Virus record (IMG/VR): IMGVR_UViG_3300037466_002257
Origin: an uncultured virus (IMG/VR IMGVR_UViG_3300037466_002257)
Lineage: Duplodnaviria; Heunggongvirae; Uroviricota; Caudoviricetes
DNA: 64,000 nucleotides
Direction: 5' to 3' (one strand)
The number at the start of each line of letters is the position of its first letter. Position 1 is the stretch's first letter. The translations under genes were made by a program, and so were the position numbers. The notes below the pieces were generated by a model. The model did no database searches. It saw nothing but the letters and a program-made list of their open reading frames with translations, and was not told the origin of the DNA. Positions 1,064-62,148 of this stretch are shown one piece after another.

Positions 1064-2665
1064 ATGCTCGACCGTATCCGCTCCCTCTTCAGGCTGAAAG
1101 GCACTTTGCCCGCGTCCGGTGGCGGCAAGGTCAAGTCCGCGCCCGGCGCCAAGGCGGGGGCGAGCGGCATGCTGGCGCCACCGACGCCGCCGAAGGTCAA
1201 GAACGGCCAGATGACGGTCCCGTCGTACATGACGACGAACGCCGCGCAGACCTCGGCGCGGCCGAAGAACGACCTGAACCTGGCGAACGTGGACATCGTC
1301 AACACGTACCGGTTCGGCGCCGATACGGACACGACGATCCGCTCGCTCGCACGCGGCAACCCCGACTTCGCCGCTGCCATCTCCGGCCACCTGCGCCTCG
1401 GCATCCCCGAGAAGTACGTCGCCATCGCCTACGACCTGCAGGGCAACTTCAACCTCGAAGGCACGCAGTTCTGCCTGCAGTTCCTCGACCGGCTGAACAC
1501 GATGCCCGGCTACGACGTGGGCTTCAACCCGACGAACGCGATGCAGTCGCTCGGCGAGAGCCTTGCGAAGGAGATGCTGCTGGTCGGCGGCGTCGGCATG
1601 GAGCTGGTGCTGAACAAGGCGCGGCAGCCCGCCTTCTTCGCGCCCATCAGCGTCGGCGGCCAGCGCTTCCGCTTCTACGACGACTGGAGCGGCGGCACGA
1701 AGACGCTGCGGCCGGTGCAGGTCGTGGGCGGCGAGGAGATCGACCTCGACGTGCCGAACTTCTTCATGACGTGGCTCGACCCGAGCGTGATCGACCCGTA
1801 CCCGCAGCCGCCGCTGGAGTCGGCCATCCAGCCGGTGCTGGCCGGATCGACCTTCCTGAACGACCTGCGGCGCCTGTGCGAGCGGCACGTCTACCCGCGC
1901 ATCCACTGCACGGTGGACGGCGAGAAGCTCAAGGGCCTGATGTCCGAGGAGCAGCTTCTGGACAGCGACAAGCGCGTCGCCTTCCTGAACGAGACGTTCG
2001 CCACCATCCAGGACACGGTGAACAACCTCGGCGTCGAGGAAGCGCTGGTGCACTTCGACTTCCTCGACGTGCAGTACGTCGAGGGGCAGGACGGCGACGT
2101 GCCGAACACGTTCGACACCGTCAAGGGCATCTACGACGCGAAGATCGCCACCGGAGCGCGCTCGATGCCCTCCTTGCTCGGGCACGGCTCGGGCAGCCAG
2201 AACATCGCCTCGACCGAAACGCTGCTCGGGATGCTCACGGCCAACGGCCTCGTGCGGCTGAAGCTGCAGGAGATGTTCTCCAAGGGCCTGACGCTCGGCG
2301 CGAACCTGATGGGCCTGCCCGTGGTCGTGAAGTTCGAGTACGACGACATCGACCTGCGTCCGGCGACCGAGCTGGAGGCGTTCAAGGCGCAGCGGCAGTC
2401 GCGCTGGCTGGAGCTAGTCTCGCTCGGGTACATGACCGACGAGGAGTTCTGCCTGCGCACGCTGTACCGGCTGCCGCCGACTGGCTTCACGCCGCGCTGG
2501 AACACCGAGTTCATGCAGCAGGCCGGTCTCGGCCGCCAGGCCGACGCGATGGGCAACAACTACTCCGGCACAGGCGTCGGCGGCGGCCAGTCGGGCGGCG
2601 GCGCCGCCAACCAGTCGCGCACGCCGCAGACGCCCACCGGCAAGCGTGGAGGGAACGGCAAATGA
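1064..2665 (+). CDS. Portal protein (alternative starts 1055 or 1028)
   Basis: About 530 aa, follows TerL and precedes head genes; low-complexity Gly-rich C-terminus. Confidence 0.75.
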   Translation: MLDRIRSLFRLKGTLPASGGGKVKSAPGAKAGASGMLAPPTPPKVKNGQMTVPSYMTTNAAQTSARPKNDLNLANVDIVNTYRFGADTDTTIRSLARGNPDFAAAISGHLRLGIPEKYVAIAYDLQGNFNLEGTQFCLQFLDRLNTMPGYDVGFNPTNAMQSLGESLAKEMLLVGGVGMELVLNKARQPAFFAPISVGGQRFRFYDDWSGGTKTLRPVQVVGGEEIDLDVPNFFMTWLDPSVIDPYPQPPLESAIQPVLAGSTFLNDLRRLCERHVYPRIHCTVDGEKLKGLMSEEQLLDSDKRVAFLNETFATIQDTVNNLGVEEALVHFDFLDVQYVEGQDGDVPNTFDTVKGIYDAKIATGARSMPSLLGHGSGSQNIASTETLLGMLTANGLVRLKLQEMFSKGLTLGANLMGLPVVVKFEYDDIDLRPATELEAFKAQRQSRWLELVSLGYMTDEEFCLRTLYRLPPTGFTPRWNTEFMQQAGLGRQADAMGNNYSGTGVGGGQSGGGAANQSRTPQTPTGKRGGNGK

Positions 2666-2991
2666 CAGTCAAGCTCCCCTTCAAGAAGGGCGCCTCCTTC
2701 AGCTTCGGCGGCACCGTGGCGCTGCCTGCGGCGACGACCTGGACGGCGCAGTCGCAGGTGCGCGACGCGGGCGGCGGTCTGGTGGCCGACCTCACCGTCA
2801 CGCTCACGCCGTTGGCGCCGCCGACGGCCGACGCGACGCACGCGATCCTGCTCGTCACGGCGGCCGACACGAGCGCGTGGGAAGGCCCGCTGTTCTTCGA
2901 CGTGGTGTACGTGAGCGCCGATGGCACCTCGAAGGTGCCGTCGGACACCGTGGAAATCGACCTGCAGCCGGGAGTGACCGTCGTTGGCTAA
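2662..2991 (+). CDS. Virion structural protein, beta-rich, possible fibre anchor
   Basis: 109 aa [15 protein letters not shown]...FDVVY; ATGA overlap with portal stop; precedes collagen-like fibre. Confidence 0.55.
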
Positions 2992-4675
2992 TCTCGTCCT
3001 CACCCCAACGTACAGCGTCGCCACTGTCCTGCAGGACGGTGACTCGAAAGTCACTTTGCGCCCGTCCACGACGCCGGTCAGCCTGGAGCTGCAGGCGCTG
3101 CTGAAGGGCGACAAGGGCGTTCAGGGCGATCCGGGGCCGACCGGCGCGACCGGCGACACCGGGCCGACCGGCCCGCAGGGTCTGCAGGGACCACAGGGCG
3201 ACACGGGTCCGCAGGGGCCGAAGGGCGACACAGGCGCCACGGGTCCGCAGGGGCCTGCAGGCGCCACCGGACCGCAAGGCCCGCAGGGCGCCACTGGCCC
3301 GCAGGGTCCGCAAGGTGACACAGGCGCAACCGGCGCCACCGGCCCTGCCGGGCCGGGCCTTGCGCCGGGCGGCCTTGCGGGGCAGATTGCGGCCAAGGCG
3401 AGCGGCGCCGACTTCGACGTGATCTGGATCGACCCGCCGAACCCGAACTGGGGCCACATTGGCGGCAGCATTACGGACCAGGCTGACCTGCAAGCAGCGC
3501 TTGCGACGAACCTGAGCGACGCGAAGGGCTACACCGACACCAAGGTGGCCGCGCTGGCAGCGGTGGCCTCGACAGGCGCGTATGCAGACCTGACAGGCAA
3601 GCCGACGCTGTTCGATGGGACGTGGGCTTCGCTCACTGGCAAGCCGACCTTCGCGACGGTGGCAACCAGCGGGCTTTACAGCGACCTCTCGGGCAAGCCA
3701 GTTCTCGCCACCGTCGCCACCAGCGGCAGCTATACCGACCTGAGCAACAAGCCCACGGCGGCGAGCCTCGGCGCGCTCACCGGCCCGGCTGGCGCGGACC
3801 TGCAGGTCCAGTTCAATGACGGGGGCACGCTCGCAGGCAGCTCGGGCCTCACCTACGCCAAGGCATCGCAGACGCTCAGTGTGGGCGGGAACCTCAACGT
3901 CACGGCCAGCCTCAGCGCGCAGAACGTCGGGGCGACCAACTCGGTGTCCTCGCCGCTGTTCACGAACGCAGCGTTTACCGCCAAGTTCATCCCGGAGGCG
4001 GCCGATACGTGGGCGCTTCAACGCAGCACGAACGCGCAAGCCTTTCGCGCGTACAAGACGTACACGGATGCGTCCAACTATGAGCGCGGTGTCTTCGACT
4101 GGCAGGCGACCGCGAACGTCCTGACCATCGGCGCGCAGGCTGCTGGCACCGGCACGCTGCGCGCCGTGGCCTTCGTAGGCGCCTCATTCTCGTTCAACAA
4201 TCCGATCACGCAGGGCAACCTGACGCTCGCAAGCAACGGCATCACGTTGAGCGACTGGCTGGGCCCCATCGGCTGGAACGCGAACGCGAAGTTCTACCTC
4301 GCGGACTCAAGCAACGGAGCAGGCATCGAGCTGCGCACGACATGGAACAGCGCGGCCACGGTGATGCCCGGCTTCCGCGTGAAGGTGACGGACACCGCCA
4401 GCGCGGCGGGATCGCGCATCTTCGACGGCGTGGTGGGGGCCGCATCGGTGGCTTATATCGTGAAAACCGGGCAGATCGTCGGCTCGTCGATCACCACGCC
4501 TCCGGTCACAGTTGCAAACCTGCCAAACGCGGCCACCGTGGGCGATGGCACCCGCCACTGCGTGACGGACAGCACGCTGGCCCTCACCAGCGCAAACATC
4601 GGCGCCACCGTCACGGGTGGCGGCACGAACAAAACCCCGGTAATCACCCTTGGCGGCGCTTGGAAGATCGGCTAA
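2984..4675 (+). CDS. Collagen-like fibre protein (possible head fibre)
   Basis: 27 consecutive Gly-X-Y triplets, four (Y/W)xxLxxKP repeats, beta-rich C-terminus; TTG start with GGAG upstream. Confidence 0.8.
3107..3349 (+). repeat. Collagen Gly-X-Y coding repeat
   Basis: [24 protein letters not shown] ... GPA, 27 triplets. Confidence 0.95.
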
Positions 4676-4690
4676 CCAAAGGAGAACGAC

Positions 4691-4945
4691 ATGACGAAAC
4701 GAACGAATCCGCTGCCCCCGCAGCAACCCCCGCTCAAGCAGCCGGAGGCCCCGAAGGTCCCCGCCGTGAACATCGCATACACCCAGGAGGAACTCGAAGC
4801 GCTCCTGCAGGTCTGCGATGCGGCCCTCAGAGGCCACGGCCTCCAGATCGTCGGGCAGGCCCAGCACATCGCCGGTAAGGCGCTTGCCGCACGCCAGCAC
4901 CTCGCCGCGCTCGCCGCGCAGGGTGAGCAAGGAGACAGGGCATGA
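4691..4945 (+). CDS. Hypothetical protein (fibre cassette)
   Basis: 84 aa, strong SD AAAGGAG. Confidence 0.7.
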   Translation: MTKRTNPLPPQQPPLKQPEAPKVPAVNIAYTQEELEALLQVCDAALRGHGLQIVGQAQHIAGKALAARQHLAALAAQGEQGDRA

Positions 4946-5426: not shown

Positions 5427-5455
5427 TTGCGCAAAGTGACTTTTTAGTCCACACT
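5427..5455 (+). promoter_or_regulatory. Putative promoter with AAAG-N3-CTTT operator in spacer
   Basis: TTGCGC-17-CACACT, AAAGTGACTTT at 5433-5443, ATG 8 nt downstream, no SD. Confidence 0.5.
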
Positions 5456-5463
5456 CCGCGCCC

Positions 5464-6966
5464 ATGAAGCTCAGCCGTATCGCCCTCGCCTCTGCCCTCG
5501 CCTGCGGCTCGTGGTTCGGGTCCGAAGCCGCCCAGCACACGCTGCTGGAGGCGCTGTCGGCCGCCGCGACGCTGGAGGCCCAAGGCATCGAAGCCGTCAA
5601 GATGCACATCAAGGCGTCGGGCGGCGGCACCGGCAGCACCGGCTTCGAGCTGCCCCCGATGTACCAGGTCAAGGACGGCGTCGCCGTCCTGTCCATCGAC
5701 GGCCCGCTCGTGACCGGCTCCACCGGCTGGATGCGCCTGTTCGGCATCGTCGGCTACGACGACATCCGGCAGGCCGCCGACGACGCGGTGTCGCAGAAAA
5801 ACGTCAAGTCGGTCATGCTGCACGTCAATTCGCCGGGCGGCATGGCGGCGGGCTGCGAGGACTGCGCCGCGCATCTGAAGGCACTTTCCGAGAAGAAGCC
5901 GATGATGACCTACTCCGACACCATCATGGCGTCGGGCGGTTACTGGCTCGGCTCCGTCGGCAAGCCGATCATGGCCGGGGCCACCGCGCTGCTCGGCTCG
6001 GTGGGCGTCATCATGACGCACGTCGATGTCTCGAAGGCCAACGCGAATGCGGGCCGCACCGTCACGGTGATCCGCGCAGGCGAGCATAAGCAGCTTGCGA
6101 ATTCGAACGAGCCGCTCTCGGACAAGGCGCGTGCCCACCTCGAGGGTCTTGGCGAGCAGCTCTACTCGGTCTTCCGCGACAACGTGGCGGCCAACCTGGG
6201 CGTGTCCACCGAGAAGTTCGACAAGACGATGGGCCGTGGACGCGAGTTCATGGGCCAGCAGGCCGTGGATGCAGGCCTTGCGTCGAAGGTCGCCACCTTC
6301 GATCAGGCATTCGCGTATGCGAAAACGCTTGACGCGTCCAGCTCAGCAGTACAGAATCCGCGCAATCCGAAAGGGAACACGAACATGAAAGCCACTTTGT
6401 CCGTCGCGTACCTGATGAAGCTCTTCGCTGGCGCAGGTGTCGCCAGCCTCGACTTCGCCAAGGCCGAGGCCTGTGCCTCCGGCCAAGCGCCCGATGCCGA
6501 AGCGCAGCAGCTCCTGCGCGCGCAGGCCATCGAGATCAGCGCGGGCGTGAAGGACGCGAGCGCCGAAGCGGTGCGCGTCGCGACCGAAACGCTGAACGCC
6601 AAGGTCACCGACGTGGAGGCCAAGCTCTCCGTCGCCAACACCGAGCTGGGTGCCCTGCGTACCACGAACGCCGCGCTGCTCGAATCGAGCAAGACGCTCG
6701 AAGCGTCCGTCGCCGCCGCCGACTCCGTCGTGCACGCCTCGCTGTCGGCGATGTGCGTGGCGCTGAAGCAGGCCGAGCCGAAGGCCGAGCTGAAGGGCGC
6801 CGAGCTGCTCGCCGAGCACAAGCGCGTGGCCGACGAGTTCGCCGCCAAGTTCCCCGGCCAGCGCGTGAGCGCCGCGCCGTCCGCCGAGTCGCAGCAGACC
6901 CCGAACAAGGGTGCCAGCGCCGAGGTCCCGATGTTCGCCCGTGTGGCTGCCGCCGCCCGCGCCTAA
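5464..6966 (+). CDS. S49 (SppA-like) prohead protease with C-terminal scaffold region
   Basis: HVNSPGG, MASGGYWL (catalytic Ser), GSVGV motifs; helical C-terminal third. Confidence 0.9.
   Translation: MKLSRIALASALACGSWFGSEAAQHTLLEALSAAATLEAQGIEAVKMHIKASGGGTGSTGFELPPMYQVKDGVAVLSIDGPLVTGSTGWMRLFGIVGYDDIRQAADDAVSQKNVKSVMLHVNSPGGMAAGCEDCAAHLKALSEKKPMMTYSDTIMASGGYWLGSVGKPIMAGATALLGSVGVIMTHVDVSKANANAGRTVTVIRAGEHKQLANSNEPLSDKARAHLEGLGEQLYSVFRDNVAANLGVSTEKFDKTMGRGREFMGQQAVDAGLASKVATFDQAFAYAKTLDASSSAVQNPRNPKGNTNMKATLSVAYLMKLFAGAGVASLDFAKAEACASGQAPDAEAQQLLRAQAIEISAGVKDASAEAVRVATETLNAKVTDVEAKLSVANTELGALRTTNAALLESSKTLEASVAAADSVVHASLSAMCVALKQAEPKAELKGAELLAEHKRVADEFAAKFPGQRVSAAPSAESQQTPNKGASAEVPMFARVAAAARA
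6329..6357 (+). promoter_or_regulatory. Putative internal promoter for scaffold/capsid genes
   Basis: TTGACG-17-CAGAAT with GCTCAGCA in spacer, upstream of internal SD/ATG 6385. Confidence 0.45.
6385..6966 (+). CDS. Putative nested capsid scaffolding protein (in-frame internal start)
   Basis: GAAAGGGA SD 8 nt before in-frame ATG; analogous to lambda C/Nu3. Confidence 0.6.
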   Translation: MKATLSVAYLMKLFAGAGVASLDFAKAEACASGQAPDAEAQQLLRAQAIEISAGVKDASAEAVRVATETLNAKVTDVEAKLSVANTELGALRTTNAALLESSKTLEASVAAADSVVHASLSAMCVALKQAEPKAELKGAELLAEHKRVADEFAAKFPGQRVSAAPSAESQQTPNKGASAEVPMFARVAAAARA

Positions 6967-8849: not shown

Positions 8850-9212
8850 ATGCCGGAAGAAAAGAAGGACGCCGCCCCCGCGCCGGGCTACCGCTCGCTG
8901 GATCGCAAGGGCATGTGGTTCCTCTCCAAGGCGGTGTTCCCGCTGGAGGACCCCACCTTCGTGCACGAGCAGGGCAAGGGCGCCAACCTGCCGCGCTTCG
9001 AGCCGGGCAGCTACACGCAAGCCCCCGAGACCTCGTGGACCGAGGCGCAGTGGAAGGCCGGGGTGCTGGTCAAGCACACGGGCGACCCGCGCGACGAGGG
9101 CGTGCAGCCCATCGTGTACGAGGAGCCGAAGGCTGCCGCCGCGCCTGCCGCGCCTGCCGCGCCCGCCGCGCCCGAGAAGAAGGGCGAAGACGACAAGAAG
9201 GCCGCGAAGTAA
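8850..9212 (+). CDS. Hypothetical protein (head region)
   Basis: 120 aa, SD AAAGGA, Ala/Pro-rich tail. Confidence 0.75.
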   Translation: MPEEKKDAAPAPGYRSLDRKGMWFLSKAVFPLEDPTFVHEQGKGANLPRFEPGSYTQAPETSWTEAQWKAGVLVKHTGDPRDEGVQPIVYEEPKAAAAPAAPAAPAAPEKKGEDDKKAAK

Positions 9213-9232
9213 CTTTCGCCTGCCCCGCCGAC

Positions 9233-9803: not shown

Positions 9804-10640
9804 GTGCGCACGCGCGCTGCCGCCCGGTTCTTCGACCGCAACCCGGCCTACGACGGCTACACGGGCGCGTTCCTGTTCAACTGCTCGTTCACGAACTTCG
9901 ACGACGTGGCGGGCGACGGCTCGACGAACCGGCGCCGCGCCCTTGCGGTGGACCCGGATGTCGTCGGCCCGGCGCGGGGCTGCGTGCTGCTGGGAGCGCA
10001 GCGCTGGGTCATGGGCGACCCGACCGACGACATGTTCGAAGGTGCCCTGATCCGCCACACGTACAACGTCAAGCGCGTGACGGACAAGCTGACGATCCTC
10101 ACGCCCGCGCAGGCCTGCCTGGCGCAGGCGGGCACCGACGCCTACGTCAACAAGCTGTACTTCAAGGCCCAGCTCAACTCGATCTCCGACAGCGACTACG
10201 ACAACTTCTGGAACGTCTTCTTCGCCCGCAGCGAGCCGGTCACGAAGGGCCTTTTCCTGCGCGACGAGGGCGGCACGCACTTCCGGGTGCGCGACACGTA
10301 CCGCGTGCCCGAGGGCTTCCTGATCGTGCAGTGCGACGAGCTGGACGCCGACGCGAGCGCGAGCGCCACCTTCGAGACGGGCGGCATCGACCCGATCACC
10401 GACAAGCCTGTGGCGGGCAGCGTTGCGACCACCGTACTGCAGTTCGATCCGATGAAGCTGTACCGCTTCGAACAGCAGGCCGAGTCGCAGATCAAGCCCG
10501 GCGACCGCATCGTCGTGGCCGCCGCGAGCGCGCTGACGCCCAAGGTCGGCATGCGCTTCGCGATGGGCGGGCGCAACTGGCAGACCGTCCTCGTCAAGCC
10601 CGAGCAGGACGCCTACGCCCTGCTCGTGAGGCTGGCGTGA
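9804..10640 (+). CDS. Putative head-closure/joining protein
   Basis: GTG start after GGGAG; beta-rich, synteny. Confidence 0.5.
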   Translation: MRTRAAARFFDRNPAYDGYTGAFLFNCSFTNFDDVAGDGSTNRRRALAVDPDVVGPARGCVLLGAQRWVMGDPTDDMFEGALIRHTYNVKRVTDKLTILTPAQACLAQAGTDAYVNKLYFKAQLNSISDSDYDNFWNVFFARSEPVTKGLFLRDEGGTHFRVRDTYRVPEGFLIVQCDELDADASASATFETGGIDPITDKPVAGSVATTVLQFDPMKLYRFEQQAESQIKPGDRIVVAAASALTPKVGMRFAMGGRNWQTVLVKPEQDAYALLVRLA

Positions 10641-11641: not shown

Positions 11642-11670
11642 TTGTAAAAAGGTACTTTGCTGGGCATAAT
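11642..11670 (+). promoter_or_regulatory. Sigma70-type promoter for tail tube with operator in spacer
   Basis: TTGTAA-17-CATAAT; AAAGGTACTTT at 11648-11658. Confidence 0.65.
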
Positions 11671-12966: not shown

Positions 12967-12990
12967 ATTGCCAGAATTTCCAAAGTTCCT

Positions 12991-13018
12991 TTGACAAAAT
13001 TTCCAGCCTCTCTATACT
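12991..13018 (+). promoter_or_regulatory. Sigma70-type promoter for tail chaperone
   Basis: TTGACA-16-TATACT; AAAGTTCCTTT overlaps the -35. Confidence 0.75.
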
Positions 13019-13860: not shown

Positions 13861-13910
13861 TTGTTCTCAAAGGGCCTTTCGGTGAGAATGCTCATCAGTA
13901 AAGGCCCTTT
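13861..13910 (+). promoter_or_regulatory. Putative tape-measure promoter with two AAAG-N3-CTTT sites
   Basis: TTGTTC-17-GAGAAT; palindromes at 13869 and 13900; GCTCATCA at 13890. Confidence 0.55.
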
Positions 13911-13913: not shown

Positions 13914-16900
13914 ATGACCACTCCGACGCTCGAACTAAACATCAAGGCGACCGGCATCGAACAGGTGACGGCGCTGCGTGCTGCGCTCGCGGACCTGAAC
14001 AAGCAGTCGCAGGAGCTGAAGAACTTCGGGTCGAACGCAAGCTCGCTGGACCGCCTTGCGCAGGAGATGAAGGACATGCGCACGGAGGTCGTGGCCGCCG
14101 TGCGTGATGTGAAGACGGCGCTCGTGGACGGCCTGAAAGTGGCTTTGCAGGACGCCATCAAGACCGTGAACAGTGGCATGGGCGGCGTGGCCGACGCCTT
14201 CAGCGCGAAGATGAAGGCGCTGTCGGAGAAGATCGCCAGCGAGCAGCAGGAGGCGGCCCGCACGGCGATGGCCGCCAACGGCGCTGCTGCGACCACGCAG
14301 GCCCGCGTCGAGGGCGCCAAAGTCGGTCAGGCGTTCGCACAAGCAGAGGAAGAGGCCAAGGCCAAGGTGCGCGTCTCGTACAGCGTCGCGCTCGCTGGAG
14401 GTGCCCGCGCGTCCATCGGCGCGAACGGCCTGTCCAGCACGGACCTCGTGATGCAGGAGGCCAAGAAGGTCGAGCAGTCCACCCTTGCGATGCAGGCGGC
14501 CTATGACAAGGCCATTGTGACGCTGGACAAGCAGGTCGAGAAGGTGGTCGAGGCGGCCACCGTGGGACCGAACACTCTGCGCGGCAAGGGCTACATCGCG
14601 TGGTGGGACTCTGTCATCTCCGACATGGAGAAGGGCGAAGCCGCGCTGCTCGCTGCCTACGAGAAGTCCATCGTCACGCTGAACAAGCAAACGGCAGCCG
14701 TCATGAAGGCGGCGACTGAGCCTGCCTACCTGGCTGCAGGTCCCGCGTGGTGGGACAAGGTCCTCGCCGAGCAGGAAGCTGCCGCAGCGAAGCTCGAAGC
14801 GGAGTACGCGAAAGAGATCGGCAAGCTGGAGAAGCAGACCGCCGCTGTCATGAAGGCTGCGACGGAGCCCGCGTACAAGTACGCCGGGCCGAAGTGGTGG
14901 GAAGAGGTTCTCGCGGAGCAGGACGCCGCTTACGCGAAGATCGTGGCCGACAACGAGAAGTGGACGAAGGCCATTCAGGCGTCGGTGACCTCCGCCAACA
15001 ACGCGGCGTTCGGCGGTCGCAGCGGCCCGTTCAGCGCCCTGTTCTCGGGCACCGTTTACAACATGCCCAAGCCGGAGGACCTGGACAAGGTTCAGAAGGG
15101 CTTGAAGGGTGTCAAGGGTGCGGCCGACGAGGCCTCGGGAGCATTCGCGCATGTCGGTTCGCAGTCCGCGAAGATTCGCAACGAGACAGGCACGCTTCTC
15201 AGTGAAATCTTTGAAGGCCGTATGGCGAACGCACGCAAGTCCGTGTTCGCCCTCATCAACGCCTTCGGTCTGTTCTCCGCGCTCTTCACACCTGAAGGGG
15301 CAGTCCTTGGAGGTCTCCTCGCACTGGGCTTCGCCATGTATAAGGGCGAGGAGCAGGCCACCGCGTTCAACAACGCGCTCACGCTGACGGGCGGCTACGT
15401 CGGCATGACGCGCGGGGCGCTGGAAGACCTTGCGCGCACGGCCTCGCAGGACACGAGCGCCAGCATCGGCCAGGCGAAGGACGCTGTGTTGGCACTTGCC
15501 AAGAGCGGCAAGATCACTGGCGACGCGATGAAGGTCCTTTCCGAGGACGTGATCCTGCAGGCGCGGCTGACCGGCGACTCGCTGGACGCGGTCGCGGCCG
15601 ACTACGCGAAGATGCCCGACGGCGTGGCGAAGTGGGCCGCCGCACACAACGAGTCGATGCACTTCATGTCGGTTGCGCAGCTTGAGCACATCCGACTGCT
15701 GGAAGAACAAGGCCAGAAAGAGAAGGCCATGATCGAGGTCGGTGAGGCGCTGAACAAGCACTTCACCGAACAGGGTGAACATCTCGGGGCGCTGGAAAGG
15801 GCCGCTCGCGCCCTGCGCAACACGTACTCTGAGATGTGGGACGCCGCGCTTGGCGTGGGCCGCGAGAAGACCGTCGAGGACCAGATCAACAGCCTCCAAG
15901 CCAAGATCGACAAGGTCAATAGCAACAAGAAGTGGTACAACATCACAGGCCCGACGACGCTCGACGCCGAGGTCCAGATGTGGCAGGCGCAGATCGCGGA
16001 CCTGCAGGATCAGAAGAAGATGCTGGACCAGCAGGCCGCCGAGAAGGGCCGGGCGGTGCAGGACCAGCAGCGCGGACAGTCGGCCCTTGGGGACATCTCG
16101 CGCCTGACGGAGCAGACCGACAAGGCCACACGCCTGAGCGTCGCGCTCGTCAAGCTGAAGGGCGACATCGAGGCCTACAACAAGGCATGGCTTGGCAGCC
16201 ATCCGGGCGACACGAGCACGCCGTTCAACGCCGTCACGAAGCAGGGCTACATCAACGACGCGCAGGCCGCCGAGTTGATCCGCAAGCAGACCGACTACAT
16301 CAACGGCGGCTCGCACGGCAACGACGGCGCGCTGCAGGCCGCGAAGTCTGAGTACAAGGACCTCGAAGCCCTCGCGAAAAGTGACTTCGCAAACGAGCAG
16401 GCCTTGCGCGACGACCAGCATCGCAAGGGGTTGCTGGATAACGCGACCTACTTCTCGGAAAGCCTCAAGGCGCAGAAGACGTATTCGGACCAGCTCATTG
16501 ACGCGCTGGTGGACGAGTACGACAAGCAGCTTGCGCTGGAGAAGAAGCAAGAGGCCGCGATCAACGCAAGCACCACACTGAAGGCGGGCGCCAAGGCGGA
16601 TCAGATCGCCAGGCTGCGTTCGGGCCTCGACGCGTGGTACGACACCCAACGCACGAAGATCGACGTGGTGACCGACAAGGCTGCCACGCACCTTCAAGAG
16701 CAAGCCGATACGTCGGTGCAGGCCGTCAACAAGATCGTCGAGGCCGATGACAAATACTGGGCGAAGGCCGAGTTGAACTCGAAGAAGCTCGCCGACCAAG
16801 CGAAGACGAAGCGTGACCTTGCCAGCGCGACGGAGGAAGAGCGTGTGCAGGCCGAAGCCATCGCGAAGGTCGAAGACACGCGCGCAGGTGAGCTGGAGAA

Positions 16901-22707: not shown

Positions 22708-22747
22708 GTGAAAAGGGACTTTCCAGCTAAGATTCCAGCTCAACAAT

Positions 22748-25882: not shown

Positions 25883-25920
25883 CCGGCTCAACAATACGAA
25901 GTGACTTTCAAGGGTGCCGC

Positions 25921-28071: not shown

Positions 28072-28083
28072 AAGGAGCTTTCT

Positions 28084-29676: not shown

Positions 29677-29691
29677 TTCGGAAGTTCCTTT

Positions 29692-35620: not shown

Positions 35621-35636
35621 TTGAAAGTTCCTTTCT

Positions 35637-36572: not shown

Positions 36573-36587
36573 TCTGGAAAGTTCCTT

Positions 36588-36791: not shown

Positions 36792-36805
36792 GAAAAGTTC
36801 CTTTC

Positions 36806-43689: not shown

Positions 43690-44384
43690 TTGGAAGTTCC
43701 TTTTTTCAGGTTGAGTTGGTAGTCGGCAGCGCCGACCAATTCGAGGCTGCGCCTCAAATTCGGATCGAGATCGAGCTTCGACAGCCACTCGCGGTAGCCC
43801 TTGGGCAGCTCCGCAAGCAGCAGGCCTTTGTGCTTGCCCCAAGGCATGCGGTGCACCATCTCAAACGGGGTCTTGACGTGCTGCACGATGGAGCGGCCCG
43901 AGCGCGGGATCATGTGCAGCAGTGCCTGGTGCGTCGTCACCACGTCGCCCATCGCGCGGTGGGCCGTGCCGCCTTCGAGCTGCAGGTGCGCCCGCAGCGT
44001 CTGCAGCTTGTGGTTCTCGAGGTCGGGGAACATCTTCTGCACGAGCGGCAGCACGTCCCACGACTTCACGAAGTTGGTGAAGCAGTGCTTGAGCATCGGC
44101 TCGTCGAATGCGACGCGGTAGCCGATCAGGTAGGCGTCGCCGTCGATGGTGCCGCCGAAGGTGTCCTGCAGCCACTCCTCGAACGTGGGGCAGTCCTTGA
44201 CCATCTCGTCGCTGATGCCGTGAATCTCGGCGGCGGTGGGGTCGATGGGTTTGCCGGGGTTCAGGAGTGCTTCGGCCGTGCCGAGGATGTTCAGGTCCTC
44301 GTCGATCTCCATGAGCGCAAGGTCGCACGCCTTGCGGTCCTTTTCGAGGCCGGTCGTTTCAGTGTCGCCGATGAACAGGCGCAT
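43686..44384 (-). CDS. DEDDh 3'-5' exonuclease (ExoX/DnaQ-like)
   Basis: DTETTG, IHGI, FD, HRAMGD; C-terminal MPWGKHKG...YREWL. Confidence 0.88.
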   Translation of the reverse strand: MRLFIGDTETTGLEKDRKACDLALMEIDEDLNILGTAEALLNPGKPIDPTAAEIHGISDEMVKDCPTFEEWLQDTFGGTIDGDAYLIGYRVAFDEPMLKHCFTNFVKSWDVLPLVQKMFPDLENHKLQTLRAHLQLEGGTAHRAMGDVVTTHQALLHMIPRSGRSIVQHVKTPFEMVHRMPWGKHKGLLLAELPKGYREWLSKLDLDPNLRRSLELVGAADYQLNLKKGTSK

Positions 44385-44396
44385 GAAGGTCCTTTC

Positions 44397-44426: not shown

Positions 44427-44450
44427 GCAGTTGCCGCTTGCGTGTGTCGA

Positions 44451-51025: not shown

Positions 51026-51039
51026 GAAAAGTCCCTTTC

Positions 51040-51730: not shown

Positions 51731-52660
51731 TCACTCCTCGACGACGCCGCAGGTGATGAACAGCGGTTCCACCTCGCGGTGGAAGCTCTCGGCGATCACC
51801 TTGCCGTGCTTCTTGAAGATGCGCTGCAGCAGGTCGAACGCCTCGGGGCCGTGCTTCTTCTGCTGCTTCAGGGCCTTCTCCGCAAGCTCAGCCTTCGTGG
51901 GCTTCTTGCGCTTGGCCGCCGCCGCCTTGACGGTCTTGCCCGTCACGCGCTTGCCCGTCTTCTTGGCTTCCTCGCGGGCTTCCTTGAAGACTTCCTCGGC
52001 CGCGTCCTTGTGCTCCTGCACCGTCTCGATGGCGAGCGTGGCGCTGATCTCGCCCGCCTTCACCGCCTCGCGGATCGTGGCGGGCGCCGACATCAGCGTC
52101 TGCAAGTGGCGCACGTAGGTCGTGGTCATGCTCAGCTTGGCGGCGATCTCGCCTTCGTTCAGGCCGAACTTCTCCATGCGCTGCACGATGATGCCCAGCT
52201 CCAGCGGCGTGAACTTCTCGCCGTCGTTGTTGCTGTGGACCATGTGCACGAGGCGCTCGACTTCGCTCGTCGAGCGCGGCATGACGACCACGGGCACCGT
52301 CTCGATGGGAGCACCCTTCTCGACAGCGATCAGCGCGGCGGCGCGGCGGCGGTGGCCGTCTTCCACGTACAGCACGTTCTTGCCGTTCTCGCTGGCGACG
52401 CTGACGGCGATGGGTTTGCTGTCGTAGAAGCCGTTCTCGATCATCGAAGCGGCCAGCGCGGTGAGGCCCTCGCGGTAGCCGTCGGTCTCCAGGCGCGGGT
52501 TGTAGCCTTCGCGCACCTTGATCTCGGACAGCGGCACGCGCCACAGGTCGCTGGACTTCGCGTTGCTGTCCTTCATGGCGACCTTGACGGCACCGGGGAC
52601 CAGCTTGTCCTCGAACGCGGCGAGGTGCTTGACTTGCTTTTCGATTTCTTGGGTGTTCAT
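51731..52660 (-). CDS. ParB/Srx-like domain protein with HTH
   Basis: YNPR, DGHRRRAA, HTH-like EGEIAAKLSMTTTYV, GEISAT. Confidence 0.85.
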   Translation of the reverse strand: MNTQEIEKQVKHLAAFEDKLVPGAVKVAMKDSNAKSSDLWRVPLSEIKVREGYNPRLETDGYREGLTALAASMIENGFYDSKPIAVSVASENGKNVLYVEDGHRRRAAALIAVEKGAPIETVPVVVMPRSTSEVERLVHMVHSNNDGEKFTPLELGIIVQRMEKFGLNEGEIAAKLSMTTTYVRHLQTLMSAPATIREAVKAGEISATLAIETVQEHKDAAEEVFKEAREEAKKTGKRVTGKTVKAAAAKRKKPTKAELAEKALKQQKKHGPEAFDLLQRIFKKHGKVIAESFHREVEPLFITCGVVEE

Positions 52661-52691
52661 GTTGAAAGTTCCTTTCGTTGGTTGCTGTGAG

Positions 52692-52919: not shown

Positions 52920-52957
52920 GGTGGAAAGCTCCTTTCTGGCCGTGTGGCCGTAGCTCG

Positions 52958-52987: not shown

Positions 52988-53226
52988 CCGGGCGGTAACT
53001 TGTAGTTGCCGTCGTACCGTGGCCGCAGCGCGATCAGCTTCTCGGCCCGCTCGATCAAGCCCTTGTACTGAGGGTAGTGACGCAGCATGTGCGTCGTCAC
53101 GATCAGGCAGTCGGACAGGCGCACGCCGTACAGCATCGCAAGGTGGTCGTGCGAGACGAAGTGCCTTTGCCCGTCGTTCTGGCTGACGACGTAGCCGGGG
53201 TACAAAGCGTACTTCGGCTCGCTCAT
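52984..53226 (-). CDS. Hypothetical protein
   Basis: 80 aa PGYVVSQNDGQRHF...LRPRYDGNY. Confidence 0.65.
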   Translation of the reverse strand: MSEPKYALYPGYVVSQNDGQRHFVSHDHLAMLYGVRLSDCLIVTTHMLRHYPQYKGLIERAEKLIALRPRYDGNYKLPPG

Positions 53227-54059: not shown

Positions 54060-55445
54060 TCCCAGCGAGTACGCAACACGCGTCACATGGTCACGCTGCT
54101 CCCATGCCCGCAGGTTCTCGGCGATGCGCTTGAAGAGGGCTCGCACCGGCCGCGTGTCCACGCTTTGGCCGAGGAGCTGGTGCGCAGCGGTGGCCGACAG
54201 GTCGCCCAGGCACGCAGCCGGGAAGCCCTTGATGCGGGCATGCTCCTGCGGCGTGAGCAAGCGCAGCCACTCGGGCTGCGTCGGGTGCTGCACCTTCGGC
54301 TCGGTCGAGCGGTTCTTCATGTAGTCCTTGCCGATGGTGCCCACCTTGACGGTGTCCTCGTTCACGATCTGCATGCGAAAGCCCTTGCCCGCTTCCTTGT
54401 CGCGAATCTCCTTCGCCTTCAGACCTTCCATCTTGGACCACGTCAGCTTGCTCTGGTCGGTCTCCAGATAGTCGCCCAACTTCGGCCTGCGCTTGAGCTT
54501 GGGCTCGAGATTGGACAGGTCCATCGGGATGCCGTGCGTCGCGGCCACGAGGAACCAGCGCTTGCGCTCCTCCAGCGAGCCGAAGTCCCACGAGTTCAAA
54601 GTGACTTCGTGCACGTCGTAGCCCATGTCGCGGAACATCTGGCGCATGAGCAGCGCGCTCACCGTGTTCGAGTACGGCACGACGCACTCGACGACGGCCA
54701 CGGCCGGATTGAACTTGTTCACCAGCATCAGGTAGGGCACGACGAGGTGCCCGACCTCGGGGTGCTCCTCGGCGCAGTCGATGGCGTTCTTGGTGCGCCC
54801 GCTGATCGAGGCGCCGCTGCACGGGATGCCCGTGACGAACACGTCCACCTTCGGCAGCTCCTTCATGGCTTCCTCGTCCTGCACCAGCTCCTGCATGGGC
54901 GCGGCGATGAGCCGGGTGTTGCTGGTGACGACGGGGTTGAACTGCGCCGCGTGGTCCAGCAGGTCGCCGTCGATCTCGATGGCGGCCACCAGCTCGCTCT
55001 TGACGCCCGCATCGAGCATGCCCGCATGCGCCGCGTTGTCCATCACGCCGCCGCCGAAGCACAGCGCCGCCACCGCAAGGGCGGTGCACAGGCCCTTCGC
55101 CAGGCGGTTCTTGCGGGCGTGCTGCTTCTCGGCCGACGACAGGCGCTCGATGCGGATCGCACCCTCGATCATGCGCACCTTGACGGCCGGCTCGTTCGCC
55201 AGCTTGCCGAGGACGGCGTTGTCATTGATGTCGATGATGGGGATGGTCTTGTCGCCCTTCGTCTTGCCGGAGACGATGCGCTTGCCGTCTTCGGCCAGCG
55301 TGAGCAGCAACACGCCCTGCTTGTCGTCGTAGTTCGCGTCGTAGCGCTTGCCGCGCTCGAAGCCGTACTCGGCGAGCTGCATGCTCTCGAACCAGAGGCG
55401 GGCGTTGCCGCGATGCTGACCGATGTGCTTGACTTGGTAGTCCAT
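54045..55445 (-). CDS. DNA (cytosine-5)-methyltransferase with N-terminal extension
   Basis: LCFGGG (motif I variant), GIPC catalytic motif, VECV, ERKRW, LLTPQEHARIKGFP, GQSV. Confidence 0.85.
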   Translation of the reverse strand: MDYQVKHIGQHRGNARLWFESMQLAEYGFERGKRYDANYDDKQGVLLLTLAEDGKRIVSGKTKGDKTIPIIDINDNAVLGKLANEPAVKVRMIEGAIRIERLSSAEKQHARKNRLAKGLCTALAVAALCFGGGVMDNAAHAGMLDAGVKSELVAAIEIDGDLLDHAAQFNPVVTSNTRLIAAPMQELVQDEEAMKELPKVDVFVTGIPCSGASISGRTKNAIDCAEEHPEVGHLVVPYLMLVNKFNPAVAVVECVVPYSNTVSALLMRQMFRDMGYDVHEVTLNSWDFGSLEERKRWFLVAATHGIPMDLSNLEPKLKRRPKLGDYLETDQSKLTWSKMEGLKAKEIRDKEAGKGFRMQIVNEDTVKVGTIGKDYMKNRSTEPKVQHPTQPEWLRLLTPQEHARIKGFPAACLGDLSATAAHQLLGQSVDTRPVRALFKRIAENLRAWEQRDHVTRVAYSLGRATG

Positions 55446-55472
55446 GAAGTTCCTTTCTGGCCGTGAGGCCGT

Positions 55473-57078: not shown

Positions 57079-57108
57079 TGGAAGTTCCTTTCTTGGGTTG
57101 GTGGGTCT

Positions 57109-59001: not shown

Positions 59002-59031
59002 GTCAAAGATCCTTTCTGGCCGTGTGGCCGT

Positions 59032-59750: not shown

Positions 59751-59772
59751 GCAAAGCTCCTTTCTGTCACGC

Positions 59773-60596: not shown

Positions 60597-60823
60597 TGCG
60601 GAAGTTCCTTTCGCAGGTGGGGGTTGCCGTCCAGCCATTCGTTCAGCGCCTGCACGCGCTTCTCGGACATGTGCAGGTCGAACTTCTGGCGCTCGATGGA
60701 CGCCTTCGTGAGCGCGATCAGCGCCTCCTCGTTCGCGAGCATCTCCGCAAGGAGTTGCTTGAACGACTTGCGCGGGTGCAGCCTTTCGAGCCAGCGGTCG
60801 ATGAAGGTGGTCTTGAAGAACAT
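60593..60823 (-). CDS. Hypothetical protein
   Basis: 76 aa coiled-coil-like, SD AGAAAGGA. Confidence 0.6.
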   Translation of the reverse strand: MFFKTTFIDRWLERLHPRKSFKQLLAEMLANEEALIALTKASIERQKFDLHMSEKRVQALNEWLDGNPHLRKELPQ

Positions 60824-60873: not shown

Positions 60874-61131
60874 TTACAGTTTCTTCAGGTCGTACTCGAC
60901 TTCGTCGAGCAGTTCTTTCGTGCTGTGCAGCGTGTCGTCGCGCACGGCCGTCAGGATCACCGTGCGCTCGTCCAGCCTGCCGTCGCTGCCGGGGTGCGAG
61001 GCGCGGGCGATGTACCAGCCGTTGCTGCGCAGGTACTCGACCACGTCGTCGCGCTTCTCGCGCGGCAGCGTCACCGTGATCTGCTCGACCAGCTTGGCCT
61101 TGACGGAGATGGGGAAAGTGCCTTTCGGCAT
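60874..61131 (-). CDS. Hypothetical protein
   Basis: 85 aa, SD AGAAAGGA. Confidence 0.6.
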   Translation of the reverse strand: MPKGTFPISVKAKLVEQITVTLPREKRDDVVEYLRSNGWYIARASHPGSDGRLDERTVILTAVRDDTLHSTKELLDEVEYDLKKL

Positions 61132-61168
61132 GGAGAGTCCTTTCTGGCCTTGCGGCCGGATCGCGATT

Positions 61169-61426: not shown

Positions 61427-61432
61427 GCCCTC

Positions 61433-61460
61433 ATTATTGCTGAGCAGGGGCATCCGTCAA
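61433..61460 (-). promoter_or_regulatory. Sigma70-type promoter, probably leaderless
   Basis: TTGACG-16-AATAAT, ATG 6 nt downstream, GCTCAGCA abutting -10. Confidence 0.6.
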
Positions 61461-62120
61461 TCAGGCCGTCGCCTTGGCATCCAGCCATTCGAGGGCCTTC
61501 TGCGCAATCGGCGCCTCCCAGCCGAACATCGAGGCGCCAATCGCCGAGTCGATCACGTCCTTGGGCATCGGCCCGCCGTTGAGCGTATCCACGGAGGCGC
61601 TCGTCGTGATCTTGTAGTAGCCCTTCTCGCCGCGCTTGACCGCGATGACCCTGACACCTTCGACGTGGTGCTCCAGGCTCGTGTCGCGCACATCGACGAA
61701 GATGGTGTCGGGGTTCTGGCCGCGCACGATGTTCAGCTCGGTGAACTCGCTGTTGCGCACCGCGTTCGTCTCCGGGTCCAGCTCGATGAACTGGATGCCC
61801 ACGAGCTTGTCGCCGTCCATGTAGACGTTGCGGGCCAGCTCGTTCGTCTTGGCCGCTTCGAAGATGTGGTAGACGGTGGCGCCCCAGCGGCGCGAGCCGT
61901 CGTTCATCTCGATCAGGGCCAGGTAACCCTTGATGCCGGGCTTCTGGATGCGGAAGTCGTAGGTGCGCGCGGCGTTGCGCAGCAGCATCTCGCGCACCGC
62001 GTCGCTGCCCTTGTCGAACGCGTGCCAGTCGTTCTCGTCCTTGTTGCTGTACTCGATGGGCTCGCCGCGCAGCGCAGCGTCGATCATGGGGCGCAGCTCT
62101 TCGGGGATGTCGTTCTGCAT
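61461..62120 (-). CDS. Hypothetical protein
   Basis: 219 aa; C-terminal KRGEKGYY...ASMFGWEAP. Confidence 0.7.
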   Translation of the reverse strand: MQNDIPEELRPMIDAALRGEPIEYSNKDENDWHAFDKGSDAVREMLLRNAARTYDFRIQKPGIKGYLALIEMNDGSRRWGATVYHIFEAAKTNELARNVYMDGDKLVGIQFIELDPETNAVRNSEFTELNIVRGQNPDTIFVDVRDTSLEHHVEGVRVIAVKRGEKGYYKITTSASVDTLNGGPMPKDVIDSAIGASMFGWEAPIAQKALEWLDAKATA

Positions 62121-62148
62121 GGAAGTTCCTTTCGTTGGTGGGTTGGAC

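Follow-up and report, generated by a model that had tools for sequence, protein, structure and literature searches.

Dispersed RAAG-N3-CTTY palindromes in an uncultured phage genome: candidate docking sites for an orphan ParB/KorB-like protein

The phage and its palindromes

The DNA considered here, called the window, is a stretch of 64,000 nucleotides from an uncultured virus (IMG/VR record IMGVR_UViG_3300037466_002257), a segment of a tailed-phage genome with 65% GC. Its genes lie in two arms: a structural, lysis, and HNH set on the plus strand (1-28.9 kb) and a replication/early set on the minus strand (29-64 kb), the latter including about 35 small proteins of unknown function (Table 1). 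Scattered over both arms is a short palindrome, AAAG-N3-CTTT, and within the minus arm lies a gene whose product resembles ParB and KorB. The subject of this article is the palindrome and the proposal that it serves as a docking site for that protein.

There is no near match in the phage database and no close cultured relative; Vibrio SHOU24-like and Pseudomonas PMBT3/Lana phages come nearest, with 26-31% amino-acid identity. Neither a repressor nor an integrase was found among the window's proteins by Pfam and PHROG scans, and the phage looks lytic, judged from the part that the window covers. The ParB-like protein recurs on a contig of 82,855 nt, which leaves about 19 kb of the phage outside the window. 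One IMG/VR record, G001 (63.9 kb), is near-identical to the window and keeps every site, but it is too close to inform on site conservation. Other records are cited by handles, short or zero-padded (G2 = G002, G3 = G003, G8 = G008, G10 = G010, G12 = G012, G30 = G030).

A palindrome of fixed spacing

A first-pass annotation, made from the letters of the window alone, listed 25 perfect copies of AAAG-N3-CTTT and 24 copies with one outer base changed, put the total at about 50 sites, and guessed that well under one perfect copy would arise by chance. Every copy listed is where it was said to be, there are no additional perfect ones, and the count comes to 52. The guess was sound as well: 100 dinucleotide shuffles give a mean of 0.21 perfect copies and a maximum of 3, and none reaches 25. 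No other gapped 4+4 palindrome of the window comes near AAAG-N3-CTTT in enrichment (Poisson p ~1e-47). The sharp peak anticipated at a spacing of three is also present. AAAG-Nx-CTTT is found 25 times at x=3, once at x=11, and not at all at any other x from 0 to 12, while RAAG-Nx-CTTY is found 52 times at x=3 and 0-11 times at other spacings. The inverted arrangement, CTTT-Nx-AAAG, yields 0-1 copies. Perfect sites account for 26% of the window's AAAG/CTTT tetramers, as against 1% in the relative G2.

Only the outermost base is free to vary. There are 24 one-end variants (19 GAAG..CTTT and 5 AAAG..CTTC) where about one is expected, and the eleven other possible single changes give 0-2 copies each, at the level of chance. 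The doubly changed form, GAAG..CTTC, contributes three further copies (635, 28636, 57995), also a chance level (1.03 expected). Symmetrised, the sites give 104 readings, of which 92 have G or T as the first central base, and the flanking bases hold no information. The outer A/G wobble together with this G/T preference defines the motif as R-A-A-G-K-N-M-C-T-T-Y, of which there are 52 copies in 64 kb, one per 1.2 kb. They are spaced more evenly than random sites (coefficient of variation 0.62 vs 0.97; none of 5000 random sets is as low), and the largest gap between them is 3174 nt (P=0.004).

Where the sites are placed

Many copies lie wholly within genes, and codon choice does not account for them. 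Against 500 synonymous-codon shuffles, which the first-pass annotation had expected the motif to survive, there are 29 fully intragenic copies of RAAG-N3-CTTY instead of 2.00 +/- 1.36 (maximum 7), and 10 perfect copies instead of 0.12 +/- 0.34 (maximum 2). Just 4 of these 29 fall in the 25 nt ahead of another gene's start, so the excess does not come from overlap with Shine-Dalgarno sequences; the refuting outcome that the first-pass annotation had named, a loss of enrichment once such overlapping copies are set aside, is not what is seen. Synonymous change alone would permit the motif at 108 coding positions, of which 29 (27%) are occupied, alike in both arms (15/49 and 14/59) and along the genes.

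The remaining 23 copies touch non-coding DNA, which totals just 2.5 kb, and 22 of the 42 gaps of at least 10 nt hold one. Eighteen of the 52 end 0-8 nt upstream of a start codon, and in these the left half-site is the Shine-Dalgarno sequence itself (AAAGGA). The sequence AGAAAGGA fits a 16S tail that ends CCUUUCU. Thirty-eight genes have RAAGG within 25 nt upstream of their starts, and in 19 of them the sequence runs on into nnCTTY; by a rough estimate from base composition, well under one gene would be expected to do so. Since the excess is equally strong away from starts, the enrichment is not to be put down to ribosome binding. Such a pattern fits a site that is favoured throughout and put where the cost is lowest.

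One might nonetheless take the motif for a signal in mRNA, a translational operator or enhancer associated with starts, comparable to the start-associated sequences (SAS) of Cluster K phages; a protein or an RNA would recognize it at ribosome-binding sites, with the remaining copies as by-products. The numbers just given for starts lend this some color, as does the tendency of these copies to precede the first genes past a short gap, in the early arm, mostly with ATG starts. Furthermore, four ribosome-binding sites are preceded by a GGCC-N4-GGCC hairpin, which recalls the extended sequences (ESAS) as described for Cluster K (PMC3203893). It is too much, however, to treat as by-products the 34 of 52 copies that lie off starts, 25 of them deep in genes at a 12-fold excess. 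Two copies (11648 and 12982) are in promoter DNA, ahead of the point where transcription is predicted to begin, and G030, an unrelated phage introduced below, has 26 copies of its form of the site and none at a ribosome-binding site. Nor would an RNA hairpin explain the symmetry, because no compensatory changes of the stem are seen among the variants and the commonest variant at ribosome-binding sites, AAAGGAACTTC, breaks the outer pair. A stem of four mostly A-U pairs closed by a 3-nt loop would in any case be expected to be unstable on its own. I regard the mRNA explanation as quite improbable.

The hairpins deserve a description of their own. The sequence GGCC-N4-GGCC-AG-AAAGG occurs four times on the minus strand (52931-52949, 55452-55470, 59011-59029, and 61139-61157; 0.02 expected), each a hairpin of four G+C pairs with a 4-nt loop (ACAC, TCAC, ACAC, GCAA) that abuts the Shine-Dalgarno sequence of an early gene. 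A motif copy follows three of the four. The hairpin at 52931-52949 may stabilize the 5' end of a transcript, because it lies just past a predicted promoter (52987-52958). Different in kind is a terminator-like hairpin, GGGACCCTCG-GAAA-CGAGGGTCCC TTTTT, at 44396-44430 on the minus strand, directly before the copy at the exonuclease gene, with which it shares a single 66-nt gap.

The motif was first described as a network of operators in promoters, ribosome-binding sites, and genes, and the promoter part of that picture fits just a few sites. Eight sigma70-like promoters are predicted in the window. In five of them the motif lies no more than about 45 nt from where the transcript is predicted to begin: in the spacer (11648), over the -35 (12982), or downstream of that point by 16-34 nt (1097, 6388, and 52925). 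The remaining three are more than 300 nt from any copy. The copies at 11648 and 12982 stand as promoter copies; the promoters claimed at 5433 and 13869 fall below the threshold of the scan. With distances to predicted promoters that range from -43 to +34, the motif was rejected as a promoter element. Few hexamers resembling a -10 stand at a fixed offset: they occur 1-6 nt past the motif nine times (about 1.2 expected), several of them being start codons and only three or four promoter-like.

Two of the predicted promoters bear on gene starts. The first, TTGACA-17-GACAAT in the region 1028-1066, lies across two in-frame ATGs, the first two of the portal reading frame. As the third ATG (1064) stands at about the expected transcription start, the portal mRNA may have no leader, or the gene may start further downstream. 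The second, TTGACG-17-CAGAAT, lies inside the S49 protease gene (6329-6400) and is followed by GAAAGGGAAC and then by an in-frame ATG (6385), probably the start of a nested scaffold gene. G12 keeps both this ATG and the motif copy that follows (nt 3316).

Table 1. Features of the window. Perfect sites are AAAG-N3-CTTT, and one-end variants have one outer base changed; strand is entered as. for all sites. RBS, ribosome-binding site; G12, the motif-rich relative discussed in the text.
Feature	Position	Strand	Remarks
Plus-arm gene content	1-28.9 kb	+	terminase, portal, S49 protease, tail tube, chaperones, fibres, holin, endolysin, HNH
Major capsid gene	7570-8784	+	
Tape-measure gene	13914-19568	+	
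Minus-arm gene content, part 1	29-64 kb	-	SbcCD-like nuclease, ThyX, ligase, family A polymerase, DksA-like protein
Minus-arm gene content, part 2	29-64 kb	-	dNMP kinase, MazG, primase, SNF2 helicase, ParB-like protein, C5 methyltransferase
Orphan ParB/KorB-like gene, candidate binder	51731..52660	-	309 aa; PHROG 1033 ParB-like, E 4.9e-53
Six small unknowns	29287-29676, 34184-34378, 35306-35620, 50406-50807, 51040-51453, 61169-61453		
Duplex forms of palindromic site			AAAGGAACTTT, AAAGTGACTTT, GAAGTAACTTC
Perfect site AAAGGCACTTT	1097..1107	.	5' end of portal gene, ~40 nt past predicted promoter 1028-1056
Perfect site	3047..3057	.	63 nt into collagen-repeat tail-fibre gene 2984-4675
Perfect site	5433..5443	.	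intergenic, 20 nt upstream of S49 protease gene; G12 likewise
Perfect site	6388..6398	.	immediately after internal ATG 6385 of protease/scaffold gene; G12 likewise, other codons
Perfect site	11648..11658	.	spacer of predicted promoter TTGTAA-17-CATAAT upstream of tail-tube gene
Perfect site	12982..12992	.	overlaps -35 of predicted promoter TTGACA-16-TATACT
Perfect site	13869..13879	.	intergenic, upstream of tape-measure gene
Perfect site	13900..13910	.	3 nt upstream of tape-measure start codon
Perfect site	14136..14146	.	within tape-measure gene
Perfect site	17144..17154	.	within tape-measure gene
Perfect site	22712..22722	.	intergenic, 25 nt upstream of gene 22748
Perfect site	23728..23738	.	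within tail-fibre gene 23576-25798
Perfect site	28071..28081	.	RBS of ORF 28084 (GTG)
Perfect site	35624..35634	.	RBS of gene 35306-35620 (-); G12 likewise
Perfect site	36578..36588	.	RBS of DNA ligase gene (-); G12 likewise
Perfect site	36794..36804	.	RBS of gene 36588-36791 (-)
Perfect site	38259..38269	.	within DNA polymerase A gene
Perfect site	39400..39410	.	within DNA polymerase A gene
Perfect site	45955..45965	.	within primase gene
Perfect site	51028..51038	.	RBS of gene 50804-51025 (-)
Perfect site	52665..52675	.	RBS of ParB-like gene; G12 likewise
Perfect site	52925..52935	.	RBS of ORF 52692-52919; ~16 nt past predicted promoter 52987-52958 (-)
Perfect site	59005..59015	.	RBS of gene 58588-59001 (-)
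Perfect site	59753..59763	.	RBS of gene 59454-59750 (-)
Perfect site	61115..61125	.	16 nt into gene 60874-61131 (-)
One-end variant GAAG..CTTT	5877..5887	.	within protease gene
One-end variant	9206..9216	.	end of gene 8850-9212, upstream of terminator-like hairpin 9233-9252
One-end variant	10244..10254	.	within gene 9804-10640; G12 site at matching place
One-end variant	15530..15540	.	within tape-measure gene
One-end variant AAAG..CTTC	16378..16388	.	within tape-measure gene
One-end variant	19905..19915	.	within gene 19565-21064
One-end variant	21049..21059	.	5 nt upstream of start of gene 21065
One-end variant	25898..25908	.	intergenic, 12 nt upstream of holin-like gene 25921
One-end variant	26916..26926	.	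within endolysin gene
One-end variant	27210..27220	.	12 nt into gene 27198-27641
One-end variant	29681..29691	.	RBS of gene 29287-29676 (-); G12 likewise
One-end variant	32176..32186	.	within SbcD-like gene
One-end variant	32864..32874	.	upstream of ATG of SbcD-like gene (-)
One-end variant	40785..40795	.	within dNMP-kinase-like gene
One-end variant	42635..42645	.	78 nt into gene 41700-42713 (-)
One-end variant	43693..43703	.	RBS of MazG-like gene 43090-43689 (-)
One-end variant	44385..44395	.	abuts ATG of exonuclease gene 43686-44384 (-), just past terminator-like hairpin
One-end variant	47854..47864	.	within primase gene
One-end variant	53158..53168	.	within gene 52984-53226 (-)
One-end variant	54598..54608	.	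within C5 methyltransferase gene
One-end variant	55446..55456	.	abuts ATG of C5 methyltransferase gene (-)
One-end variant	57081..57091	.	RBS of gene 56527-57078 (-)
One-end variant	60601..60611	.	RBS of gene 60228-60596 (-)
One-end variant	62122..62132	.	RBS of gene 61461-62120 (-)

The ParB-like protein

If the palindrome is read as double-stranded DNA by a symmetric dimer, one protein of the window stands out as its candidate reader. The ParB-like protein has a ParB helix-turn-helix (HTH) domain (Pfam PF17762, HTH_ParB, E 3.8e-5, residues 160-229), and its sequence matches Spo0J (1vz0, E 2e-4) and KorB, including the DNA-binding domain of the latter (1r71). Boxes I and II of the ParB family are present: YNPR and DGHRRRAAA align with NPR and GERRYRAA (the GxxR box) of Spo0J 1vz0, and the residues N54, R56, G102, and R105 are invariant across 21 homologues. 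An AF2 model (pLDDT 82.3) submitted to Foldseek has KorB as its best match (8qa9, the KorB-KorA-DNA complex; E 5.6e-9, TM 0.70), followed by Myxococcus xanthus ParB (7bnk) and Noc (7nfu), with sulfiredoxin as a match for the N-domain. By sequence and model alike, the protein is assigned as a true member of the ParB family.

It is an orphan. None of the 90 proteins of the window is a ParA-type ATPase, and the neighbours of its gene are small unknowns. The layout is not that of a ParABS system, for the sites are dispersed rather than clustered at the ParB-like gene. Nonetheless the gene has the motif both on its own ribosome-binding site (52665) and upstream (52925). Throughout this clade of ParB-like proteins, NPR and GxxR are kept, while the third box, ENxxR, has become (S/G/T)-N-x-(D/E/S)-G, only the N being retained. 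This suggests proteins that bind a nucleotide and whose hydrolysis of it is altered or absent.

The motif in related phages

The claim that the sites are genome-wide can be made only for the window together with the near-identical G001. Searches of IMG/VR and metagenomes with the capsid protein gave only identical fragments or relatives of at most 71% identity. Five capsid relatives (about 70% capsid identity), namely G002, a complete record of 85.9 kb, and the partial records G003-G006, match structural and replication genes of the window at 27-71% identity. They have 1, 0, 0, 0, and 0 perfect sites, respectively, and no alternative strong palindrome appeared in G2 and G3, the two that were scanned de novo. 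They also have nothing homologous to 50.4-64 kb of the window, the ParB-like gene included.

Then there is G12 (61.6 kb), which has 19 perfect sites where 0.21 are expected (p 6e-31) and 34 when the wobble is allowed. It shares 42 orthologues with the window at 25-77% amino-acid identity and belongs to the same broad phage family; compared with G2 it is nearer the window in the tail, lysis, ligase, and ThyX genes and farther in the capsid. The motif occupies 21 of its 92 permitted coding positions, as against 2/102 and 2/75 in the controls G2 and G10. Eight sites lie at matching places in the window and G12, where chance, estimated from site density, would give about 0.14-1.2 (about 0.14 at the precision of matching used here). 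One is 26 and 25 nt, respectively, upstream of the protease gene; one follows the internal ATG of that gene directly, in different codons (M-K-A-T-L vs M-K-V-A-F); one is inside gene 9804; four are ribosome-binding sites of early genes, the ParB-like gene among them; and the last, upstream of the tube gene, matches less exactly in place. A scan of IMG/VR with the 17-mer of the ribosome-binding-site type gave at least 113 matches, all single and in unrelated contigs, and was uninformative.

The two other candidates named at first do not follow this distribution: the Xis-like protein has homologues in the motif-free G2 and G3, and the HTH-like protein (57326-57601) has none in the motif-rich G12. 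Only the ParB-like protein, of those named, tracks the motif.

The motif in other elements with a ParB-like gene

A search of IMG/VR with the single ParB-like protein gave no match, and a search with an alignment of the family gave 31 loci at no more than 42% identity. The motif was sought in whole records for 25 of the 31, the other six being short fragments. Homologues at 49-80% identity (P0002-P0017) are found only in Logan assemblies.

Several of these elements have the motif, or another palindrome of its family, and share with the window the ParB-like gene alone (tblastn E<1e-4, the criterion used throughout); G30 and G8 are exceptions in that a generic S49 protease is shared too, and in G8 there are weak helicase-like matches besides. 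G029, a 13.7-kb piece of a provirus, has 5 sites (0.18 expected). G030 (56.8 kb, L190-L192), a phage unrelated to the window, lacks the AAAG form and has 26 copies of GAAG-N3-CTTC (3.0 expected), about 20 of which are the exact 11-mer GAAGTWACTTC; AAGT-N-ACTT occurs 19 times (0.45 expected), and 16 of 35 permitted coding positions are used. Its GAAG form looks like a lineage-specific variant of the window's site. G008 has 13 copies of AAGT-N-ACTT (0.74 expected), and CAAA-N5-TTTG is found 14, 11, and 8 times in G022, G018, and G024 (about 1-2 expected). Another palindrome altogether, the 19-bp ATATATTCASTGAATAYAT, occurs in three copies (52-74, 10963-10985, 55071-55093) in G013 (L204-L207), where the AAG-N3-CTT motif is absent; it is possibly G013's own site. 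Compared with the GAAG-type protein of G008, the ParB of G013 has SAS instead of SAT after the HTH.

Across the seven motif-rich elements (the window, G12, G030, G008, G029, and the near-identical Bordetella and Achromobacter islands described below), the ParB-like gene is the only gene of the window common to all. In six of the seven, a site lies within 110 nt upstream of the element's own ParB-like gene or on its ribosome-binding site, and in G029 it lies inside the gene. This is what one would expect of an autoregulated gene of the ParB/KorB type.

Who else might read the motif?

A host factor was at first held to be equally possible, and bacterial chromosomes offer a means to judge. The host in question would be of the Burkholderiales type, and its protein, nucleoid-associated or regulatory, would read RAAG-N3-CTTY, and the phages and islands of such hosts would gather the site in order to exploit it. 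There is something to be said for this. The window and G12 have tail, holin, and endolysin genes in common, and so probably a host range too, while the motif-free G2 does not share these genes. All named homologues and positive bacterial loci are from Burkholderiales (Polaromonas, Bordetella, Achromobacter), and the choice between AAAG and GAAG could track the lineage of the host. A host regulator, however, should have a regulon of its own on the chromosome. The 5.2-Mb chromosome of Bordetella bronchiseptica has 27 perfect sites, fewer than the 65 matches of the reversed control, and 13 of the 27 fall inside one 105-kb island that holds the ParB-like gene (1.34 expected; other spacings give 0-2), with no excess elsewhere. 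This island (L213-L218, ~3.555-3.660 Mb) has 56-61% GC (59%) within a flank of 65-69%, and many of its sites read AAAGCWGCTTT. A metagenome-assembled genome (MAG) of Achromobacter (L219-L221) has a stretch near-identical to the island; of its 46 sites (72 in the control), 9 lie within the 35 kb around the ParB-like locus. A host-wide motif was therefore rejected for Bordetella, the single chromosome on which it could be tested, and cultured phages of the Burkholderia, Delftia, and Bordetella type (AH2, RG-2014, ST79) are not enriched. The host explanation has, in my estimate, only a small chance of being right.

It might also be that some other phage protein binds the motif, a small unknown early protein or one encoded outside the window, and that the link to the ParB-like protein is coincidental or indirect. 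Six small unknowns (Table 1) are found in the window and G12 and are absent from G2 and G3, the very distribution of the ParB-like gene. There is room for a further candidate in the 19 kb that the window does not hold, and the majority of ParB-like homologues occur without the motif. Yet none of the six has a homologue in the motif-bearing G029, G030, G008, and G022 or in the Bordetella/Achromobacter island, none has a recognizable DNA-binding domain, and weak Pfam matches offer no DNA-binding candidate among the small early proteins. I think such a binder unlikely.

Finally, an enzyme could be what recognizes the palindrome, whether a methyltransferase, a nickase or nuclease specific for the site, or a base-modifying system. 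A tolerance of mismatches close to zero is more like restriction and modification than like an operator, the phage does encode a C5 cytosine methyltransferase and an HNH endonuclease, and ParB-fold proteins are described that can pair with DNA-modifying enzymes (bioRxiv 10.1101/2025.08.14.668559). But a target of this kind is normally either avoided or neutral, not present at a 100-fold excess and at even intervals, and neither the methyltransferase gene nor the HNH gene has a homologue in the motif-rich G12, G030, and G008. A gene of the TET/JBP type was not found among the 90 proteins of the window. The ParB proteins of modification systems lack a DNA-binding domain, which the window's protein has, and for this reason those of phage T-dioxygenase systems, as described, were rejected as a match (bioRxiv 10.1101/2025.08.14.668559). 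An enzyme target is very improbable.

A proposed role, and what weighs against it

I consider it probable, though well short of certain, that the sites are where the phage's orphan ParB/KorB-like protein docks and loads. That it binds the motif I infer from sequences and their distribution, and this much of the first proposal, a dispersed palindrome serving a dimeric DNA-binding protein, perhaps as loading sites, is supported at its core. In the mechanism envisaged, the 52 copies of RAAG-KNM-CTTY would be double-stranded sites for a symmetric dimer of the partner-less protein, which combines an N-terminal domain of the ParB-CTPase type with an HTH domain. Docking would take place at each palindrome, after which the protein would slide onto adjacent DNA, possibly closed as a clamp in dependence on a nucleotide; the analogy is with KorB of RK2 and with Noc. 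A site every 1.2 kb or so would then suffice to load the whole phage chromosome and hardly any of the host's. Given a need for loading throughout the phage, selection would write the site wherever it could be afforded: in nearly every larger intergenic gap, at AAAGGA Shine-Dalgarno sequences, which provide a half-site for free, and at about a quarter of the coding positions open to it by synonymous change.

The output would most likely be control of phage transcription across the genome, autoregulation of the ParB-like gene included, and/or organisation or marking of the phage DNA. Control in the manner of KorB is suggested because copies lie on promoters and on the ParB-like gene itself; a function that covers the genome is suggested because the spacing is even and the codon-compatible positions are saturated. 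The two are compatible and not exclusive.

A bolder version, which I find conceivable but doubtful, has the ParB-like protein form a self-marking lattice that coats the entire phage chromosome and essentially none of the host's, apart from chance copies. Selection would then act on the density of sites, hence the filling of one-quarter to one-half of codon-compatible positions in four independent lineages, the recruitment of Shine-Dalgarno sequences as half-sites, and the switching of the outer base between AAAG and GAAG from lineage to lineage as specificity drifts. If so, the lattice would amount to a protein 'chromatin' that distinguishes phage self from host DNA, and it might shield against nucleases or defence, counter silencing, or gather genomes into a compartment for replication and packaging.

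A number of observations weigh against docking by the ParB-like protein. Its third box is missing: SNNDGE stands opposite ENLQRE of Spo0J and the ENLQRN-type sequence of KorB, and with the ENxxR box of ParB CTPases so replaced, hydrolysis of a nucleotide is doubtful. The sites of ParB-family proteins are described as compact palindromes of 13-16 bp (PMC12409273, PMC11790492); at 11 bp, with 6 bp between the centres of its half-sites, the present one is shorter than any in the literature consulted. Of the 25 IMG/VR records with a ParB-like gene, 4 are strongly positive and about 3 moderately so, and most of the 25 have 0-2 sites. G010 and G013, examined as whole records, are negative, and the cultured phages AH2, RG-2014, and ST79 (homologues at 33-38% identity) have 1-2 copies of RAAG..CTTY against 3-8 in the control. 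Since most records are negative, the motif cannot be predicted from a homologue at 32-42% identity; it accompanies some lineages of the clade and not all. In the HTH region no residues clearly co-vary with AAAG versus GAAG, and the classes of motif are scattered over a ParB tree with long branches and poor resolution. That only the ParB-like gene is shared is partly by construction, because the elements were found through ParB homology. All positive elements may infect Burkholderiales-like hosts, so a shared host factor is conceivable, and part of the phage genome, those 19 kb, lies beyond the sequence analysed.

The window supplies a concrete candidate DNA target for one clade of orphan ParB-like proteins, an 11-bp palindrome with lineage-specific variants that saturates the codon-compatible positions in several unrelated phages and in the Bordetella/Achromobacter island, and the array is a simple signature by which comparable systems may be detected. 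Phages and mobile elements of other kinds commonly encode orphan ParB-like proteins, and a survey from 2025 describes many on prophages, their roles open (PMC12704722). If the binding is real, the paradigm of a sliding clamp as global regulator extends from plasmids to phages that are apparently lytic, and the case would show how strong a hold a DNA-binding protein can have on the synonymous sites and ribosome-binding sites of a genome.

Comparison with known systems

Other phages disperse short sites over their genomes. The stoperators of Cluster A phages are asymmetric 13-bp sites that follow the direction of transcription and to which a temperate phage's immunity repressor binds; like the conserved inverted repeats of phiC31, they number two to three dozen copies, lie mostly in short intergenic gaps, and serve a single phage protein. 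The likeness to stoperators that was first noted extends only to layout, because the window's sites are symmetric, and no repressor or integrase accompanies them in the window. The SAS of Cluster K is described as a repeat with a Shine-Dalgarno core and symmetric outer bases, found 3-7 bp before mostly ATG starts of non-structural genes, often preceded by an inverted repeat (together, the ESAS), and rare in the host (PMC3203893). The 18 sites at ribosome-binding sites and the four GGCC hairpins of the window look similar. But SAS is described as asymmetric, in one orientation, nearly all at starts, and confined to one arm (PMC3203893), whereas the present motif is palindromic with a free centre, mostly off starts, in both arms, and in G030 never at a start.

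Noc of Bacillus subtilis provides a further parallel, one of several systems with dispersed palindromes, MatP/matS and SlmA/SBS being others. Noc is described as an orphan ParB-like protein with no ParA, which nucleates on dispersed palindromes and loads a large domain of DNA (PMC8429893; bioRxiv 10.1101/2022.02.28.481274). The window likewise pairs an orphan ParB-like protein with dispersed palindromes, and Noc is among the fold matches of that protein; Noc, however, is chromosomal and ties DNA to the membrane through an N-terminal helix, and its site (NBS) is 16 bp. Among mobile elements, BisD of ICEclc with bisS (PMC12409273) and VirB of Shigella with virS are described as ParB-like CTP clamps that load at a palindrome and control transcription at long range. 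Neither has a dense array as described: BisD uses two copies of a 23-bp site and has an extra activator domain (PMC12409273), and VirB acts against H-NS at few sites. bisS was rejected as the same site, its sequence being unrelated and its copies two (PMC12409273).

A close parallel is KorB. Twelve OB palindromes are described over the ~60 kb of plasmid RK2, from a few bp to more than 1 kb from promoters and conserved in R751 (PMC13768133), with TTTTAGC-G-GCTAAAA as the palindrome inside the OB oligo (PMC11790492). The similarities are many: a candidate binder of the ParB family, with KorB as its best structural match; a short palindrome with A/T-rich outer arms, in many copies over a replicon of about 60 kb, both near promoters and far from them; positions kept between diverged relatives, here eight sites between the window and G12; and a site at the candidate binder's own gene, in the window, G12, G008, G030, and the Bordetella/Achromobacter island. 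The differences are also plain. In the window no ParA (IncC) was identified, nor a partner like KorA or TrbA to lock a clamp, and ENxxR is not conserved. RK2 is a plasmid, while the replicon here is a phage, lytic-looking in the part covered; 52 sites in 64 kb against 12 in ~60 kb is about four times the density; and many of these 11-bp sites with a free centre are intragenic or on a Shine-Dalgarno sequence. No description of a phage-wide array of ParB-like sites was found in the main texts of the literature searched. Set against the known parallels, the present array stands apart in its phage replicon, its 11-bp site with a free centre, its density of about four times that of RK2, and its overlap with Shine-Dalgarno sequences.

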